NCBI RefSeq assembly: GCF_013315695.1
Contig: NZ_CP054353.1
Strand: one strand, 5' to 3'
DNA length: 64,000 bases
Origin: Escherichia coli
GTDB taxonomy: Bacteria > Pseudomonadota > Gammaproteobacteria > Enterobacterales > Enterobacteriaceae
Below, piece after piece: positions 16,575 through 62,393 of the stretch (its first letter is position 1; the number at the start of each line of letters is the position of its first letter). The notes beneath the pieces are model-generated. The model made no database searches, had not been told where the DNA came from, and worked only from the letters and a program-made list of their open reading frames with translations. Made by a program: the position numbers and the translations under genes.

Positions 16575-16613
16575 CAGTGTATTGGTAGCTAAAAAGCCAG
16601 GGGCGGTAGCGTG
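16575..16613 (+). promoter_or_regulatory. JUMPstart element with ops site (GGCGGTAGCGTG) in the colanic acid operon leader; RfaH-dependent antitermination signal
   Basis: CAGTGTATTGGTAGCTAAAAAGCCAGGGGCGGTAGCGTG about 180 bp upstream of wza; nearly identical to a second copy upstream of rmlB. Confidence 0.75.
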
Positions 16614-18382: not shown

Positions 18383-20545
18383 ATGACAGAAAAAGTAAAA
18401 CAACATGCCGCTCCGGTAACGGGCAGTGATGAAATCGATATTGGTCGCCTGGTCGGCACCGTCATTGAAGCGCGCTGGTGGGTAATTGGCATCACCGCCG
18501 TATTTGCCCTCTGTGCCGTGGTTTACACCTTCTTCGCCACGCCGATTTATAGTGCCGACGCACTGGTACAAATCGAGCAAAACAGCGGCAATTCGTTAGT
18601 GCAGGACATTGGTTCGGCATTAGCCAACAAACCGCCAGCATCGGACGCCGAGATCCAGTTGATTCGTTCGCGTCTGGTGCTTGGTAAAACGGTGGACGAT
18701 CTCGACCTCGATATTGCAGTGAGCAAAAACACGTTCCCGATTTTCGGTGCGGGCTGGGATCGCCTGATGGGACGCCAGAACGAGACGGTAAAAGTGACCA
18801 CCTTTAACCGCCCGAAAGAGATGGCGGATCAGGTGTTTACGCTTAATGTGCTGGACGATAAAAACTACACTCTGAGCAGCGATGGCGGCTTTAGCGCCCG
18901 TGGGCAAGCGGGCCAGATGCTGAAAAAAGAAGGCGTCACGCTGATGGTTGAAGCCATTCACGCCCGCCCGGGCAGTGAGTTTACCGTCACCAAATACTCC
19001 ACGCTGGGGATGATCAATCAACTGCAAAACAGCCTGACGGTAACGGAGAACGGCAAAGACGCAGGCGTACTGAGCCTGACTTATACCGGTGAAGATCGCG
19101 AACAGATCCGCGACATTCTTAACAGCATCGCCCGTAACTATCAGGAACAAAATATTGAGCGCAAATCCGCGGAAGCGTCGAAAAGCCTCGCCTTCCTCGC
19201 GCAACAGTTACCGGAAGTACGTAGCCGCCTTGATGTTGCCGAAAATAAATTGAATGCCTTCCGTCAGGATAAAGATTCTGTTGATCTGCCGCTGGAAGCG
19301 AAAGCGGTGCTCGATTCGATGGTGAACATCGACGCACAATTGAACGAACTGACCTTTAAAGAAGCGGAAATCTCCAAGCTGTACACCAAAGTTCACCCGG
19401 CGTATCGCACGCTGCTGGAGAAACGGCAGGCGCTGGAAGACGAAAAAGCCAAACTTAATGGTCGCGTAACGGCGATGCCGAAAACCCAGCAGGAGATTGT
19501 CCGTCTGACCCGCGATGTCGAGTCTGGTCAGCAGGTCTATATGCAGCTGCTGAATAAAGAGCAGGAGCTGAAAATCACCGAAGCCAGCACCGTCGGCGAT
19601 GTGCGCATTGTTGACCCGGCAATCACCCAGCCAGGTGTACTGAAACCGAAGAAAGGGCTGATTATCCTCGGCGCGATTATCCTTGGCCTGATGCTCTCTA
19701 TCGTGGGTGTACTGCTGCGCTCGTTGTTTAATCGTGGCATCGAAAGCCCGCAGGTGCTGGAAGAACACGGTATCAGCGTCTATGCCAGCATCCCGTTGTC
19801 GGAATGGCAGAAAGCGCGCGATAGCGTCAAAACCATCAAAGGAGTTAAACGCTATAAACAGAGCCAGCTACTGGCGGTAGGGAATCCAACCGATCTGGCG
19901 ATTGAAGCCATCCGCAGTCTGCGTACCAGTCTGCACTTCGCGATGATGCAGGCGCAGAACAATGTGTTGATGATGACCGGGGTTAGCCCGTCAATCGGTA
20001 AAACCTTTGTCTGCGCTAACCTGGCGGCGGTGATCAGTCAGACCAATAAACGGGTGTTGTTGATCGACTGCGATATGCGCAAAGGCTACACCCACGAGTT
20101 GTTGGGCACCAATAACGTCAATGGCCTGTCGGAAATTTTGATTGGTCAGGGCGATATTACTACCGCTGCTAAACCGACCTCTATTGCCAAATTTGATCTG
20201 ATCCCGCGCGGTCAGGTGCCGCCAAATCCTTCTGAACTGTTGATGAGCGAACGCTTTGCCGAACTGGTGAACTGGGCGAGTAAAAACTACGACCTGGTGT
20301 TGATTGATACGCCGCCGATTCTGGCAGTGACCGATGCGGCAATTGTTGGTCGTCATGTCGGAACCACGTTAATGGTGGCGCGTTATGCGGTCAACACATT
20401 GAAAGAAGTGGAAACCAGTCTGAGCCGCTTTGAGCAAAACGGTATTCCGGTGAAAGGGGTGATTCTGAACTCCATCTTCCGCCGCGCCAGCGCGTATCAG
20501 GATTATGGCTATTACGAATACGAATATAAGTCGGATGCGAAATAA
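18383..20545 (+). CDS. wzc: Tyrosine autokinase / polysaccharide co-polymerase Wzc
   Basis: ORF track starts at 18347; trimmed to ATG 18383 (MTEKVKQH...), 720 aa, C-terminal Tyr-rich tail (YQDYGYYEYEYKSD). Confidence 0.95.
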   Translation: MTEKVKQHAAPVTGSDEIDIGRLVGTVIEARWWVIGITAVFALCAVVYTFFATPIYSADALVQIEQNSGNSLVQDIGSALANKPPASDAEIQLIRSRLVLGKTVDDLDLDIAVSKNTFPIFGAGWDRLMGRQNETVKVTTFNRPKEMADQVFTLNVLDDKNYTLSSDGGFSARGQAGQMLKKEGVTLMVEAIHARPGSEFTVTKYSTLGMINQLQNSLTVTENGKDAGVLSLTYTGEDREQIRDILNSIARNYQEQNIERKSAEASKSLAFLAQQLPEVRSRLDVAENKLNAFRQDKDSVDLPLEAKAVLDSMVNIDAQLNELTFKEAEISKLYTKVHPAYRTLLEKRQALEDEKAKLNGRVTAMPKTQQEIVRLTRDVESGQQVYMQLLNKEQELKITEASTVGDVRIVDPAITQPGVLKPKKGLIILGAIILGLMLSIVGVLLRSLFNRGIESPQVLEEHGISVYASIPLSEWQKARDSVKTIKGVKRYKQSQLLAVGNPTDLAIEAIRSLRTSLHFAMMQAQNNVLMMTGVSPSIGKTFVCANLAAVISQTNKRVLLIDCDMRKGYTHELLGTNNVNGLSEILIGQGDITTAAKPTSIAKFDLIPRGQVPPNPSELLMSERFAELVNWASKNYDLVLIDTPPILAVTDAAIVGRHVGTTLMVARYAVNTLKEVETSLSRFEQNGIPVKGVILNSIFRRASAYQDYGYYEYEYKSDAK

Positions 20546-20563
20546 CGAGATCCGTTGTCGGAT

Positions 20564-20612
20564 GCGATGCTGACGCATCTTATCCGACCTACGTTCACGC
20601 CGCATCCGGCAA
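20564..20612. repeat. REP-like palindromic element downstream of wzc
   Basis: GTCGGATGCGATGCTGACGCATCTTATCCGAC...GCCGCATCCGGCAA, REP-type sequence. Confidence 0.5.
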
Positions 20613-20673
20613 CAGAACCCGTAAACAAGCTTATAAACCGGCAGAACATCTCGACACTCCGGGAGAACAACCT

Positions 20674-21513
20674 ATGAAAGACAATCCGCTGATCTCAATC
20701 TATATGCCGACCTGGAACCGCCAACAACTGGCGATTCGGGCGATAAAATCGGTCCTGCGCCAGGACTACAACAACTGGGAGATGATTATCGTGGATGATT
20801 GCTCCACCTCCTGGGAACAACTACAACAGTACGTCACCGCCCTCAACGATCCGCGCATCACTTACATTCACAACGACATTAACAGCGGGGCGTGCGCGGT
20901 ACGTAACCAGGCGATTATGCTGGCGCAAGGGGAATACATCACCGGGATCGATGATGATGATGAATGGACACCCAACCGCCTGAGCGTCTTCCTCGCCCAT
21001 AAACAGCAACTGGTCACTCACGCCTTTTTGTACGCTAACGACTACGTTTGCCAGGGCGAAGTCTATTCCCAACCGGCAAGCTTGCCGCTGTATCCCAAAT
21101 CGCCGTATTCACGCCGCCTGTTCTACAAACGCAATATCATTGGCAATCAGGTTTTTACCTGGGCATGGCGTTTCAAAGAGTGTTTGTTCGATACCGAACT
21201 GAAAGCGGCACAGGATTACGACATCTTCCTGCGGATGGTGGTGGAGTACGGCGAACCGTGGAAAGTGGAAGAGGCGACGCAGATCCTGCATATCAATCAC
21301 GGCGAAATGCAGATCACCTCGTCACCGAAAAAATTCTCCGGATACTTCCACTTTTACCGCAAGCACAAAGACAAATTCGACCGCGCCAGCAAAAAATATC
21401 AGCTGTTTACCCTCTACCAGATCCGCAATAAACGCATGACCTGGCGCACTTTGCTGACGCTGCTGTCGGTGCGTAACGGCAAACGTCTGGCTGATGGTAT
21501 TCGGGGGCGCTAA
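20674..21513 (+). CDS. wcaA: Colanic acid biosynthesis glycosyltransferase WcaA (GT2)
   Basis: 279-aa ORF, recognised; colanic acid cluster synteny. Confidence 0.93.
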   Translation: MKDNPLISIYMPTWNRQQLAIRAIKSVLRQDYNNWEMIIVDDCSTSWEQLQQYVTALNDPRITYIHNDINSGACAVRNQAIMLAQGEYITGIDDDDEWTPNRLSVFLAHKQQLVTHAFLYANDYVCQGEVYSQPASLPLYPKSPYSRRLFYKRNIIGNQVFTWAWRFKECLFDTELKAAQDYDIFLRMVVEYGEPWKVEEATQILHINHGEMQITSSPKKFSGYFHFYRKHKDKFDRASKKYQLFTLYQIRNKRMTWRTLLTLLSVRNGKRLADGIRGR

Positions 21514-31061: not shown

Positions 31062-31162
31062 CAGTTGCATAATCAACCGGATTAATTCTTCGGTAAATAA
31101 CGACAAAAACAAAATTGGCCGTTTCGGTCAGGGCCAACTATTGCCTGAAAAAGGGTAAAGAC

Positions 31163-33983: not shown

Positions 33984-35462
33984 ATGAGCTTACGTGAAAA
34001 AACCATCAGCGGCGCGAAGTGGTCGGCGATTGCCACGGTGATCATCATCGGCCTCGGGCTGGTGCAGATGACCGTGCTGGCGCGGATTATCGACAACCAC
34101 CAGTTCGGCCTGCTTACCGTGTCGCTGGTGATTATCGCGCTGGCAGATACGCTTTCTGACTTCGGTATCGCTAACTCGATTATTCAGCGAAAAGAAATCA
34201 GTCACCTGGAACTTACCACGTTGTACTGGCTGAACGTCGGGCTGGGGCTTGTGGTGTGCGTGGCGGTGTTTTTGTTGAGTGATCTCATTGGTGACGTGCT
34301 GAACAACCCAGACCTGGCACCGTTGATTAAAATATTGTCGCTGGCGTTTGTGGTGATCCCCCACGGACAGCAGTTCCGCGCGTTGATGCAAAAAGAGCTG
34401 GAGTTCAACAAAATCGGCATGATCGAAACCAGCGCGGTGCTGGCGGGCTTCACTTTTACGGTGGTTAGCGCCCATTTCTGGCCACTGGCGATGACCGCGA
34501 TCCTCGGTTATCTGGTCAATAGTGCGGTAAGAACGCTGCTGTTTGGCTACTTTGGTCGCAAAATTTATCGCCCCGGTCTGCATTTCTCGCTGGCGTCGGT
34601 GGCACCGAACTTACGCTTTGGTGCCTGGCTGACGGCGGACAGCATCATCAACTATCTCAATACCAACCTTTCAACGCTGGTGCTGGCGCGTATTCTCGGC
34701 GCGGGCGTGGCAGGGGGATACAACCTGGCGTACAACGTGGCCGTTGTGCCGCCGATGAAGCTGAACCCAATCATCACCCGCGTGTTGTTTCCGGCATTTG
34801 CCAAAATTCAGGACGACACCGAAAAGCTGCGCGTTAACTTCTACAAGCTGCTGTCGGTAGTGGGGATTATCAACTTTCCGGCGCTGCTGGGGCTGATGGT
34901 GGTGTCGAATAACTGTGTACCGCTGGTCTTTGGTGAGAAGTGGAACAGCATTATTCCGGTGCTGCAATTGCTGTGTGTGGTGGGGCTGCTGCGCTCAGTG
35001 GGGAACCCGATTGGTTCGCTGCTGATGGCGAAAGCGCGGGTCGATATCAGCTTTAAATTCAACGTATTCAAAACCTTTATGTTTATTCCGGCGATTGTTA
35101 TTGGTGGGCAGATGGCGGGCGCAATCGGCGTCACGCTTGGTTTCCTGCTGGTGCAGATTATCAACACCATTCTGAGCTATTTCGTGATGATTAAACCGGT
35201 GCTCGGTTCCAGTTATCGTCAGTACATCCTGAGTTTGTGGCTGCCGTTTTATCTCTCGCTGCCGACACTGGTGGTCAGTTATGCGCTGGGCCTATTGCTG
35301 AAAGGGCAACTGGCGCTGGGGATGCTGCTGGCGGTGCAAATAGCCGCGGGCGTGCTGGCGTTTGTGGTGATGATTGTGCTGTCGCGCCATCCGCTGGTGG
35401 TGGAAGTGAAGCGTCAGTTTTGTCGCAGCGAAAAAATGAAAATGCTTTTACGGGCGGGGTGA
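33984..35462 (+). CDS. wzxC: Colanic acid repeat-unit flippase WzxC
   Basis: 492-aa polytopic membrane ORF; synteny. Confidence 0.93.
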   Translation: MSLREKTISGAKWSAIATVIIIGLGLVQMTVLARIIDNHQFGLLTVSLVIIALADTLSDFGIANSIIQRKEISHLELTTLYWLNVGLGLVVCVAVFLLSDLIGDVLNNPDLAPLIKILSLAFVVIPHGQQFRALMQKELEFNKIGMIETSAVLAGFTFTVVSAHFWPLAMTAILGYLVNSAVRTLLFGYFGRKIYRPGLHFSLASVAPNLRFGAWLTADSIINYLNTNLSTLVLARILGAGVAGGYNLAYNVAVVPPMKLNPIITRVLFPAFAKIQDDTEKLRVNFYKLLSVVGIINFPALLGLMVVSNNCVPLVFGEKWNSIIPVLQLLCVVGLLRSVGNPIGSLLMAKARVDISFKFNVFKTFMFIPAIVIGGQMAGAIGVTLGFLLVQIINTILSYFVMIKPVLGSSYRQYILSLWLPFYLSLPTLVVSYALGLLLKGQLALGMLLAVQIAAGVLAFVVMIVLSRHPLVVEVKRQFCRSEKMKMLLRAG

Positions 35463-35474
35463 ATGGCTATCCCC

Positions 35475-35545
35475 GTAAGGTCGTGCGCATTTTCCCCCTC
35501 ACCCTAACCCTCTCCCCAGGGGGCGAGGGGACTGATCGAGCACAG
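35475..35545. repeat. REP-like interspersed element carrying the CCCTCACCCTAACCCTCTCCCC motif
   Basis: Sequence ...CCCCCTCACCCTAACCCTCTCCCCAGGGGGCGAGGGGACTG...; a related motif (CTCCCTAACCCTCACTCC) occurs in the sib repeat units at about 600-650 and 940-975. Confidence 0.4.
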
Positions 35546-35623
35546 CTTTGAATATGTCACCGGTTTAACTCTTAATCATCAACCATAGCACCGACGCAAT
35601 TTAGAACTCCTTTTGAGGTCATA

Positions 35624-36904
35624 ATGAAATTACTTATTCTGGGCAACCACACTTGCGGCAATCGTGGCGACAGCGCCATCCTGCGCGGCTTACTTGATGC
35701 CATCAACATCCTCAATCCACACGCCGAAGTGGACGTGATGAGCCGCTATCCGGTCAGTTCTTCCTGGCTGCTCAACCGCCCGGTAATGGGCGATCCGCTG
35801 TTCCTGCAAATGAAAAAACACAACAGCGCGGCGGGCGTTGTCGGGCGCGTTAAAAAAGTCCTCCGTCGCCGCTATCAGCATCAGGTATTGCTCTCACGCG
35901 TCACCGACACTGGCAAGCTGCGTAATATCGCCATCGCCCAGGGATTCACTGACTTCGTGCGCCTGCTGTCAGGTTACGACGCCATTATTCAGGTCGGCGG
36001 ATCGTTTTTTGTCGATCTCTACGGCGTGCCGCAGTTTGAACACGCGCTTTGCACTTTCATGGCGAAAAAGCCGCTATTTATGATTGGTCACAGCGTTGGT
36101 CCATTCCAGGATGAGCAATTTAACCAACTGGCGAACTACGTTTTTGGTCACTGCGACGCGCTGATCCTGCGCGAATCGGTCAGCCTTGAACTGATGAAAC
36201 GCAGCAATATCACCACCGCAAAAGTCGAACATGGCGTCGATACTGCGTGGCTGGTCGATCACCACACAGAAGACTTCACCGCCAGCTATGCCGTTCAACA
36301 CTGGCTGGACGTTGCCGCACAACAGAAAACGGTAGCAATTACCCTGCGCGAACTGGCACCGTTCGACAAACGTCTCGGCACCACTCAGCAAGCGTATGAA
36401 AAAGCCTTTGCCGGGGTGGTCAATCGCATTCTCGACGAAGGGTATCAGGTGATTGCGCTTTCCACCTGTACGGGCATCGACAGCTATAACAAAGACGACC
36501 GCATGGTGGCGCTCAATCTTCGCCAGCACATCAGCGATCCTGCCCGTTACCACGTGGTGATGGATGAACTCAACGATCTGGAAATGGGCAAAATTCTGGG
36601 GGCCTGTGAACTCACCGTCGGTACGCGCCTGCACTCTGCCATTATCTCGATGAACTTTGCCACTCCGGCGATTGCCATCAACTATGAACATAAATCCGCC
36701 GGGATTATGCAACAACTGGGGCTACCAGAGATGGCAATTGATATCCGTCATTTATTAGACGGCAGCCTGCAAGCGATGGTTGCGGATACCTTAGGCCAGC
36801 TTCCGGCACTGAACACGCGACTTAACGAAGCCGTCAGTCGCGAACGTCAGACGGGAATGCAGATGGTGAAATCTGTGCTTGAACGCATCGGGGAGGCGAA
36901 ATGA
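35624..36904 (+). CDS. wcaK: Colanic acid biosynthesis pyruvyl transferase WcaK
   Basis: 426-aa ORF; synteny. Confidence 0.93.
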   Translation: MKLLILGNHTCGNRGDSAILRGLLDAINILNPHAEVDVMSRYPVSSSWLLNRPVMGDPLFLQMKKHNSAAGVVGRVKKVLRRRYQHQVLLSRVTDTGKLRNIAIAQGFTDFVRLLSGYDAIIQVGGSFFVDLYGVPQFEHALCTFMAKKPLFMIGHSVGPFQDEQFNQLANYVFGHCDALILRESVSLELMKRSNITTAKVEHGVDTAWLVDHHTEDFTASYAVQHWLDVAAQQKTVAITLRELAPFDKRLGTTQQAYEKAFAGVVNRILDEGYQVIALSTCTGIDSYNKDDRMVALNLRQHISDPARYHVVMDELNDLEMGKILGACELTVGTRLHSAIISMNFATPAIAINYEHKSAGIMQQLGLPEMAIDIRHLLDGSLQAMVADTLGQLPALNTRLNEAVSRERQTGMQMVKSVLERIGEAK

Positions 36905-40851: not shown

Positions 40852-40891
40852 GCAGTGCTCTGGTAGCTGTAAAGCCAGGGGCGGTAGCGTG
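40852..40891 (+). promoter_or_regulatory. JUMPstart element with ops site (GGCGGTAGCGTG) in the O-antigen operon leader
   Basis: GCAGTGCTCTGGTAGCTGTAAAGCCAGGGGCGGTAGCGTG about 75 bp upstream of rmlB. Confidence 0.8.
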
Positions 40892-42052: not shown

Positions 42053-42951
42053 TGAATATCCTCCTTTTTGGCAAAACAGGGCAGGTAGGTTGGGAACTAC
42101 AGCGTGCTCTGGCACCTCTGGGTAATTTGATTGCTCTTGATGTTCACTCCACTGATTACTGTGGTGATTTTAGTAACCCTGAAGGTGTGGCTGAAACAGT
42201 CAAAAGAATTCGACCTGATGTTATTGTTAATGCTGCGGCTCACACCGCAGTAGATAAGGCTGAGTCAGAACCCGAATTTGCACAATTACTCAATGCGACT
42301 AGCGTTGAATCAATTGCAAAAGCGGCAAATGAAGTTGGGGCTTGGGTAATTCATTACTCAACTGACTACGTATTCCCTGGAAATGGCGACACGCCATGGC
42401 TGGAGATGGATGCAACCGCACCGCTAAATGTTTACGGTGAAACCAAGTTAGCTGGAGAAAAAGCATTACAAGAGCATTGTGCGAAGCACCTAATTTTCCG
42501 TACCAGCTGGGTCTATGCAGGTAAAGGAAATAATTTCGCCAAAACGATGTTGCGTCTGGCAAAAGAGCGTGAAGAACTAGCCGTTATTAATGATCAGTTT
42601 GGTGCGCCAACAGGTGCTGAACTGCTGGCTGATTGTACGGCACATGCCATTCGTGTCGCACTGAATAAACCGGATGTCGCAGGCTTGTACCATTTGGTAG
42701 CCAGTGGTACCACAACCTGGTACGATTATGCTGCGCTGGTTTTTGAAGAGGCGCGCAATGCAGGCATTCCTCTTGCACTCAACAAGCTCAACGCAGTACC
42801 AACAACTGCCTATCCTACACCAGCTCGTCGTCCACATAACTCTCGCCTTAATACAGAAAAATTTCAGCAGAATTTTGCGCTTGTATTGCCTGACTGGCAG
42901 GTTGGTGTGAAACGCATGCTCAACGAATTATTTACGACTACAGCAATTTAA
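42052..42951 (+). CDS. rfbD: dTDP-4-dehydrorhamnose reductase
   Basis: 299-aa [23 protein letters not shown]...; start overlaps the rmlB stop. Confidence 0.95.
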   Translation: MNILLFGKTGQVGWELQRALAPLGNLIALDVHSTDYCGDFSNPEGVAETVKRIRPDVIVNAAAHTAVDKAESEPEFAQLLNATSVESIAKAANEVGAWVIHYSTDYVFPGNGDTPWLEMDATAPLNVYGETKLAGEKALQEHCAKHLIFRTSWVYAGKGNNFAKTMLRLAKEREELAVINDQFGAPTGAELLADCTAHAIRVALNKPDVAGLYHLVASGTTTWYDYAALVFEEARNAGIPLALNKLNAVPTTAYPTPARRPHNSRLNTEKFQQNFALVLPDWQVGVKRMLNELFTTTAI

Positions 42952-43008: not shown

Positions 43009-43887
43009 ATGAAAACGCGTAAAGGTATTATTTTAGCGGGTGGTTCTGGTACTCGTCTTTATCCTGTGACTATGGTCGTCAGTAAACAGCTATTACCTAT
43101 ATATGATAAACCGATGATCTATTATCCGCTTTCTACACTGATGTTAGCGGGTATTCGCGATATTCTGATTATTAGTACGCCACAGGATACTCCTCGTTTT
43201 CAACAACTGCTGGGTGACGGTAGCCAGTGGGGCCTGAATCTTCAGTACAAAGTGCAACCGAGTCCGGATGGTCTTGCGCAGGCATTTATTATCGGTGAAG
43301 AGTTTATTGGTGGTGATGATTGTGCTTTGGTACTTGGTGATAATATCTTCTACGGTCACGACCTGCCTAAGTTAATGGATGCCGCTGTTAACAAAGAAAG
43401 TGGTGCAACGGTATTTGCCTATCACGTTAATGATCCTGAACGCTATGGTGTCGTTGAGTTTGATAAAAACGGTACGGCGATCAGCCTGGAAGAAAAACCG
43501 CTACAACCAAAAAGTAATTATGCGGTAACCGGGCTTTATTTTTATGATAACGACGTTGTCGAAATGGCGAAAAATCTTAAGCCTTCTGCCCGCGGTGAAC
43601 TGGAAATTACCGATATTAACCGTATCTATATGGAACAAGGGCGTTTATCTGTTGCCATGATGGGGCGTGGTTATGCGTGGTTAGACACGGGGACACATCA
43701 GAGCCTGATTGAGGCAAGCAACTTTATTGCAACAATTGAAGAGCGTCAGGGGCTGAAAGTTTCCTGCCCGGAAGAAATTGCTTACCGTAAAGGGTTTGTT
43801 GATGCTGAGCAGGTGAAAGTATTAGCTGAACCTCTGAAAAAAAATGCTTATGGTCAGTATCTGCTGAAAATGATTAAAGGTTATTAA
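43009..43887 (+). CDS. rfbA: Glucose-1-phosphate thymidylyltransferase
   Basis: 292-aa [60 protein letters not shown]..., recognised as RmlA. Confidence 0.95.
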
Positions 43888-62197: not shown

Positions 62198-62244
62198 TTT
62201 CTTATTCCTCTTTAAACCTGTCTGAACCGTTATCAACCGCGCAA

Positions 62245-62280
62245 TAAAAAAGCCCCCGGAAGGTGATCTTCCGGGGGCTT
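62245..62280 (-). terminator. his operon attenuator terminator (leader region)
   Basis: On the minus strand: GCCCCCGGAAGATCACCTTCCGGGGGC hairpin followed by TTTTTT, between hisL and hisG. Confidence 0.8.
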
Positions 62281-62342
62281 TCTCATGCGTTCATGCACCA
62301 CTGGAAGATCTGAATGTCTTCCAGCACACATCGCCTGAAAGA

Positions 62343-62393
62343 CTAGTCAGGATGATGGTGATGATGGTGGTGTTTAAATTGAACGCGTGTCAT
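62343..62393 (-). CDS. hisL: his operon leader peptide (MTRVQFKHHHHHHHPD)
   Basis: Minus-strand ATG at 62393; 16 codons including seven consecutive His codons, then TAG. Confidence 0.9.
   Translation of the reverse strand: MTRVQFKHHHHHHHPD

Follow-up and report, generated by a model that had tools for sequence, protein, structure and literature searches.

The spacer between wzxC and wcaK raises the question of what the short G/C-rich element within it is, whether it shares a family with the ibs/sib units that lie about 35 kb away, and whether it does anything where it stands. A preliminary description, made from the sequence alone, had seen a closely related motif in both ibs/sib units and had proposed a small REP-like family distinct from the canonical REPs. 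We followed this up in the window, by which we mean the whole stretch of 64,000 nt that was analyzed, and in complete E. coli genomes and representatives of other genera. The explanation that we favor, and in which we have high confidence, is that the element is a copy of BoxC, most likely functionless here, that marks an unstable site, and that its likeness to the sib units is coincidental.

A BoxC copy between wzxC and wcaK

A string search placed the sequence quoted in the preliminary description, CCCTCACCCTAACCCTCTCCCCAGGGGGCGAGGGG, at 35496-35530, in the very spacer where it had been reported. This spacer is 161 nt long and lies between two plus-strand ORFs (33984-35462 and 35624-36904), which the RefSeq annotation of identical sequence names wzxC and wcaK, of the colanic-acid operon. 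The stop codon of wzxC, the upstream gene, is 27 nt ahead of the repeat unit delimited below, and wcaK downstream has a ribosome-binding site, GAGGTCATA-ATG, that fits the cross-genus consensus. A 104-codon ORF with a GTG start (35237-35551, plus strand) covers the end of wzxC in a different frame and crosses the element; it is almost certainly spurious. Read-through ORFs across BoxC also occur in several other genera, and they confounded the automatic calling of spacers there.

We identify the element as a complete BoxC copy; BoxC is a known small, G/C-rich intergenic repeat of E. coli and other enterobacteria. The repeat went by the name of BoxC in the 1990s, a study of 2000 called it PIT element and one of 2015 TMECO, and its consensus is 5'-CCCTCNCCC-N3-6-GGGNGAGGG-N3-GGGNGAGGG-3' (PMC4666352). 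Written as a regular expression that recovers 23 of the 23 K-12 reference copies, this consensus has a single exact match in the 64 kb, on the minus strand at 35496-35529. A profile built from the 23 K-12 copies (nhmmer) aligns to the element over model positions 1-35 with 32.5 bits and E=5.7e-9. A search for the 22-mer CCCTCACCCTAACCCTCTCCCC that tolerated three mismatches found a single occurrence in the window, with none expected by chance. We see practically no prospect that the element is a C/G-rich stretch of low complexity that arose by chance and belongs to no family: the composition is simple, with CCCTC repeats, but no match in the window would be expected by chance, and both the profile score and the tens of thousands of E. 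coli copies with conserved flanks speak against it. The suggestion of a new family also falls away, as this one has already been described as BoxC/PIT/TMECO (PMC4666352, PMC2267715).

Read on the minus strand, the element runs CCCTCGCCC-CCTG-GGGAGAGGG-TTA-GGGTGAGGG-G. The C-block CCCTCGCCC (35521-35529; GGGCGAGGG on the plus strand) forms one hairpin arm according to the regular expression and the profile alignment, and it is followed by a first loop of 4 nt, CCTG (35517-35520), which was delimited by the regular expression and compared with Table 1 of the TMECO study (PMC4666352). The first G-block, GGGAGAGGG (35508-35516), identified by regular expression, profile and reading of the sequence, pairs with the C-block apart from a single G.A mismatch, the hallmark of the 'mm' type. 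The second loop, TTA (35505-35507), is the marker of type A, and the second G-block, GGGTGAGGG (35496-35504), delimited by the regular expression, could supply the third strand of a purine-motif triplex. By the published scheme, the copy is therefore typed as A with one hairpin mismatch ('A mm'), the commonest class among the 23 BoxC copies listed for K-12 (PMC4666352).

The limits of the unit were drawn from a comparison of flanks at eleven K-12 loci and in six copies from other genera. The 5' flank GTGCTCGATCAGTC (35530-35543, minus strand) and the 3' flank GGAAAA agree with the 11 K-12 copies and with five type-A copies of other genera. Type-A copies have about 14 nt in common on the hairpin side (consensus ~GYGCWCnnnCnGTC) and GRAA on the opposite side; the two flanks are present in the window copy. 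This conservation with type-A copies places the unit at ~35490-35543, a type A ('A mm', one mismatch) unit of ~54 nt on the minus strand made of the 5' flank, a 34-nt triplex-motif core and the 3' flank; the span of 35475-35545 given in the preliminary description comes close to it. The delimitation agrees with the published unit lengths of 50 and 56 nt (PMC2267715) and with megablast matches to BoxC elsewhere in E. coli, which run from query position 19/25 to 72/82, that is, from 35481/35487 to 35534/35544 of the window. Cross-matches among BoxC copies extend over ~58-64 nt. In its general build, BoxC comprises three 9-nt blocks with ~14 nt and 6 nt of conserved flank.

The window copy resembles the reference family in its three-block consensus, TTA loop, one-mismatch hairpin, conserved flanks and intergenic chromosomal site. 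It differs in its first loop, which has 4 nt (CCTG) as against 5-6 nt in the K-12 'A mm' copies, and in its location, as MG1655 has no copy at wzxC-wcaK and Table 1 of Holder et al. shows none near 2.12 Mb. It is also a solo copy, whereas other genera have an inverted pair in the same spacer.

A genome-wide search for the motif, which the preliminary description had named as the check on its proposal, returned an interspersed family. By blastn with a 48-nt query, we counted 90,257 places in complete E. coli genomes, spread over 5425 of the 5426, with a median of 18 per genome (range 1-33); 74 of the 90,257 are plasmid-borne, and almost all are chromosomal. The K-12 copies fetched, from eleven loci, all lie between annotated genes. 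Earlier descriptions of BoxC/PIT are said to be those of Bergler/Bachellier in the 1990s and of Hoyne and Maher in 2000. The window copy itself is in the published catalog: a sequence search found the exact 35-mer in Table S8 of Holder et al. 2015 as no. 62, in APEC O1 (NC_008563, 2,205,660-2,205,694), and again as no. 293, in BL21-Gold. The gene names wcaK and wzxC had no match in the supplements of that study, and the copy was retrieved by its sequence. This copy has thus already been cataloged at exactly wzxC-wcaK, in a family known since the 1990s.

The O-antigen cluster of the window is 100% identical to that of O1 strains, which we take to be phylogroup B2, and the wzxC-wcaK spacer is 100% identical in the type strain DSM 30083, in B/BL21 strains and in strain C. 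Strict BoxC copies number 1-2 in the B2 strains APEC O1, UTI89, S88 and LF82, and 20-30 in K-12, B, W and similar strains of A/B1 (PMC4666352 supplement). Our blastn counts, 5-6 places in O1 genomes versus 19-23 elsewhere, fit this contrast. The low strict count in B2 makes the window copy one of about two intact copies in its own lineage. The difference in strict copy number between lineages is roughly ten-fold, and the window's lineage is on the poor side of it.

The REPs that the preliminary description cited near 6866 and 20564 are real: a pattern search allowing two mismatches located them at 6866-6949 and 20557-20610, along with others in the window. The same search, with two mismatches, found no REP core of the GCCGGATG/GCCTGATG type in 35463-35623. 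BoxC and REP/BIME are alike in being short, palindromic, interspersed, extragenic and found within operons, and a BIME array occupies the same spacer in most E. coli. They differ in that their sequences are unrelated, REPs have two arms and BoxC three blocks, and REPs reach a far higher copy number. For REPs, protein partners and an associated transposase are known (PMC2817692, PMC3333891, PMC6379681); for BoxC, neither was found in the literature consulted.

Resemblance to the sib units

The two sib-side strings lie on the plus strand at 623-643 and 958-978, where the preliminary description had put them. Its claim that they are closely related to the wzxC-wcaK element did not survive comparison, as the match is at chance level and the BoxC profile scores at noise. 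Compared with the rest of the window, the 58-nt element has its longest exact match, the 11-mer CCCTAACCCTC, in sibB, and a match of at least 11 was obtained in 50% of 300 composition-preserving shuffles of the window. With the BoxC profile, the sibB unit yields two sites, whose E-values of 0.38 and 1.7 rank second and third in the 64-kb window; the profile gives no match in sibA at E<=1000 and none in the K-12 sibC, sibD and sibE loci at E<=100.

We accordingly give scarcely any credence to the reading in which the wzxC-wcaK element and both ibs/sib motifs form one small REP-like family. Its best arguments are that sibB contains CCTCTCCC-TAA-CCCTCAC beside a G-block, which together make three BoxC-like blocks, and that the runner-up matches of the BoxC profile both fall in the sibB unit. 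However, these E-values were reached in a mere 64 kb, the other Sib copies score nothing at the thresholds given, and an 11-mer is equaled or exceeded in half of the shuffles. The block order is also permuted: on the plus strand, sibB reads G-block, C-block, C-block and BoxC reads C-block, C-block, G-block, and the sib sequences do not match the strict consensus. We also considered sibB as a circularly permuted triplex motif (G-C-C); this is possible on paper, and it was rejected because it has no counterpart in the four other Sib paralogs and scores at noise level.

The sib motif has an explanation of its own in the structure of the Sib RNAs. In the window, Rfam SIB_RNA (RF00113) matches the sib units only, on the minus strand at 532-674 and 861-1009, and its covariance model has no match over 35300-35800 even at E<=10. 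The sibB copy of the motif, ACCCTCACTCCT on the plus strand, occupies 968-979 (minus-strand feature; BoxC profile E=1.7), and the sibA copy of the same helix arm occupies 633-644 (minus strand; no profile match); neither is a member of BoxC. According to the Rfam consensus fold, the molecule is closed by a helix, and the reverse complement of ACCCTCACTCCT forms the 5' arm of that helix. The SibB arm at 968-979 pairs with model positions 134-143, corresponding to window positions 865-874, and these are the complement of the ibsB ribosome-binding region AGGAAAGGGT, just upstream of the start codon. The adjacent G-block and C-block form a local hairpin that keeps its pairing although its sequence varies from paralog to paralog (GGGAGAGG/CCCCTCCC in sibB, GCGGGG/CCCCGC in sibA and GGGAGGA/TCCTCCC in sibC), which is a further argument against a single family. 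The BoxC-profile match at 834-844 falls within a stem-loop that precedes a run of U's just past the 3' end of SibB, and from its sequence we read this as the putative SibB terminator.

The resemblance to the sib units is a coincidence of G/C-block composition. The chance-level match, the block order and the role of the motif in the SIB_RNA helix together indicate a by-product of G/C-rich RNA helices and not shared ancestry. Compared as systems, BoxC and Sib RNA (RF00113; QUAD repeats) are alike in G/C-block composition, and sibB has CCCTAACCCTC and a G-block that forms a hairpin by the second C-block. They differ in that the sib motif belongs to a transcribed RNA, where it faces the ibs ribosome-binding site in the closing helix, that it departs from the BoxC consensus, and that K-12 has five Sib copies (two at this locus plus sibC, sibD and sibE) versus 23 of BoxC. 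What stands of the REP-like family reading is an interspersed family distinct from GCCGGATG-type REPs; the sib units are not members of it.

Two observations on the sib units are recorded here in their own right. Downstream of each ibs ORF, ACCCTCACTCCT is complementary to the ibs ribosome-binding region (968-979 with 865-874, and 633-644 with its sibA equivalent), so that, judging from the base complementarity, it may serve as an anti-Shine-Dalgarno sequence in the ibs mRNA; its role on the Sib strand is to close the RNA. The sequence that aligns with positions 1-28 of the SIB_RNA model (minus strand, 982-1009 and 647-674) reads TTGACA-N13-GACATAAT. As this looks like the sib promoter, the Rfam model appears to include untranscribed sequence.

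Alleles of the spacer in E. coli and other genera

Alignment of the window to K-12 by blastn halts at 35468, 6 nt past the wzxC stop, and restarts at 35611, 13 nt before the wcaK start. The segment in between (35469-35610) is specific to this allele and has no homology to the K-12 spacer. Since the homology breaks only in the spacer and the coding flanks are 94-99% identical to K-12 on either side, the polymorphism is confined to the spacer. Further dips in identity to K-12 occur at 20535-20835 (78%), which coincides with the REP at 20557-20610, at 42211-42510 (86%) and at 43411-43710 (85%); identity elsewhere is 94-99%.

The wzxC-wcaK junction was present in 4645 genomes, and its span ranges from 671 to ~1263 bp, mostly in ~97-bp steps; intermediate spans of 745 and ~778 bp also occur. 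The shortest allele is an 'empty' spacer of 72 nt (positions 300-372 of locus L002). A K-12-like strain has two REP-pair units in the spacer (L001, 300-575), and another strain has about six (L003, 300-961), for which Tandem Repeats Finder reports a period of 96 and 5.9 copies. The three spacers read in this way account for the span variation by 0 to ~6 units of a 96-nt REP pair and, with its unit number variable, the BIME array behaves like a variable-number tandem repeat. Most E. coli, K-12 included, have a REP/BIME array at this junction instead of BoxC. The BoxC-bearing spacer of 161 nt was found in 274 genomes at 97.5-100% identity.

We then looked at the wcaK loci of 80 species-representative genomes. 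Most genera have a bare spacer of 14-32 nt with the form (gaacccc)tttaagaggtcatt. BoxC directly adjoins the wzxC stop, with a type-A copy first and an inverted type-B copy second, in Pseudenterobacter, Pluralibacter, a Lelliottia, 'Enterobacter' kpr-6 and three other Enterobacteriaceae. Decayed BoxC remnants are present in six further genomes, namely a Citrobacter, a second Lelliottia, a MAG, Phytobacter, Kosakonia and Mangrovibacter. In six genomes the pairs are arranged head-to-head and share a central GTGCAC (loci L011, L016, L039, L044, L064 and L077, at ~1070-1200 in each). In the K-12 pairs examined the copies lie the other way around, tail-to-tail (e.g., 3,045,989-3,046,087), so that two kinds of composite BoxC palindrome exist.

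The window spacer aligns to the pair-bearing spacers at three points, which are BoxC, a sequence like the type-B flank, and the ribosome-binding site GAGGTCAT. A search of the window spacer for a second, degenerate BoxC gave no core, only the likeness to the type-B flank. From these alignments we infer, as a reading that is not proven, that the window allele may descend from a pair-bearing spacer in which the first copy was kept and the second lost. On the same unproven reading, the common E. coli allele would have lost both copies and gained a BIME. Alternatively, a permissive site may have received separate, independent insertions. A bolder version, which we consider highly improbable, makes the wzxC-stop junction an ancient and conserved home of BoxC across Enterobacteriaceae, with an inverted pair in their common ancestor of which half was kept in about 5% of E. 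coli and which was replaced by BIME elsewhere. If it were true, it would imply selection for a structured element at this site, for example one by which the late colanic-acid genes are uncoupled in mRNA stability or in translation, and this would be the first locus-specific function for BoxC.

How the copy arrived can be explained in another way, doubtful but worth weighing: it would be the surviving half of a MITE-like mobile BoxC inverted pair that was inserted behind wzxC by an unidentified transposase, and not the product of vertical decay. In its favor, the six genomes with head-to-head type-A and type-B copies around a central GTGCAC have terminal inverted repeats of ~21 nt, and catcaaccatagcacc in the window resembles the right flank of type B, catcaggccgcacc, in the absence of the type-B core. 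The ten-fold difference in copy number between phylogroups (1-2 in B2 versus 20-30 in A/B1) points the same way. However, no target-site duplication can be defined, as the occupied and unoccupied sites of E. coli and Lelliottia give no clean alignment, and the K-12 pairs examined have the tail-to-tail arrangement. We know of no transposase for BoxC. The near-absence of plasmid-borne places (74 of 90,257) also counts against mobility of this kind, and Holder et al. saw no tie to transposons, phages or plasmids (PMC4666352). MITEs such as ERIC/IRU resemble BoxC in being small, non-coding and interspersed, and BoxC pairs provide terminal inverted repeats; BoxC differs in that no target-site duplication could be called for it and no parent transposon is known, and its pairs come in two opposite arrangements.

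Folding, function and spacer turnover

No promoter-like or terminator-like site was found on either strand of 35300-35800. The hairpin is followed by GACTGATCGAGC, and the combination of a hairpin and a T run that characterizes intrinsic terminators is not present. Over the element, Rfam gave no match at gathering thresholds and nothing meaningful at E<=10; no family scored at E<0.3, and the best match, with E=0.35, was to a eukaryotic antizyme frameshift element and is noise. Other Rfam features of the window are an algC RNA motif inside the colanic-acid cluster (31109-31158, plus strand), two JUMPstart elements (16575-16613 and 40853-40891, both plus strand) and the histidine operon leader (62244-62367, minus strand). 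The RNA structure prediction that the preliminary description had put forward gave ordinary stability: the spacer RNA folds with z=0.19 relative to shuffles, and the Watson-Crick folds of the element on the two DNA strands, with z=-0.5 and -1.45, are unexceptional. A fold no more stable than shuffled sequence weakens the simple argument for a stable RNA hairpin.

This bears on the proposal, made by analogy with REP/BIME, that the element is a functional RNA feature whose hairpin might guard the upstream message from 3' exonucleases or tune the translation of wcaK. We regard this as distinctly unlikely. The element would be transcribed as C-block, C-block, G-block, and a G/C hairpin of 8-10 bp is possible; the same spacer is filled by a BIME in the majority of E. 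coli and, in other genera, by BoxC pairs, and the allele is conserved at 97.5-100% in 274 genomes. Yet many genera do with a bare spacer of 14-32 nt and some E. coli with the empty 72-nt one, the spacer fold is no stabler than shuffles (z=0.19), and 90 nt separate the element from the wcaK ribosome-binding site. Published tests of PIT elements, moreover, detected no promoter, terminator or RNA-polymerase effect (PMC4666352).

The property for which the family has been studied is triplex formation. Read from the block sequences, the window copy has the potential for eight canonical triplets and one mismatch. Holder et al. applied circular dichroism and NMR to the 'type A mm' class, to which the window copy belongs by its blocks and TTA loop (PMC4666352). 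Such oligonucleotides form a triplex in vitro, and neither duplex DNA nor footprinting in vivo revealed a stable one (PMC4666352). E. coli loci with a BoxC element are markedly more variable than controls (PMC4666352).

In the mechanism that we propose, the BoxC copy would be non-coding DNA, co-transcribed in the colanic-acid operon between wzxC and wcaK, and the mRNA would carry its C-rich version with a G/C hairpin. Either strand of BoxC could form a hairpin, and on the G-rich strand, the minus strand of the window, the third block could fold back to give an intrastrand purine-motif triplex. The plus strand is the coding strand and has a positive GC skew, which suggests that the G-rich, triplex-capable strand would be the template for both transcription and leading-strand synthesis. 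The copy would thereby mark, and probably contribute to, a structurally unstable intergenic site. It is most likely a structure-prone repeat that is carried along passively, serves no dedicated purpose in the operon and has the turnover of the spacer as its visible effect. A causal role of BoxC in the instability is a matter of correlation only, both in the literature and here. The recurrence of BoxC after the wzxC stop in several genera could, alternatively, mean that the site benefits from a structured element; the junction also draws BIMEs and may hence simply be a permissive spacer.

The case shows how a G/C-block motif can seem related to another repeat, here sib, purely by composition. 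It also presents one operon spacer taken in turn by two unrelated repeats, BoxC and BIME, which fits the reported link between BoxC and turnover. The natural series of three alleles at a single junction, with BoxC, with an empty spacer and with a BIME of 1-6 units, would be a convenient test bed.
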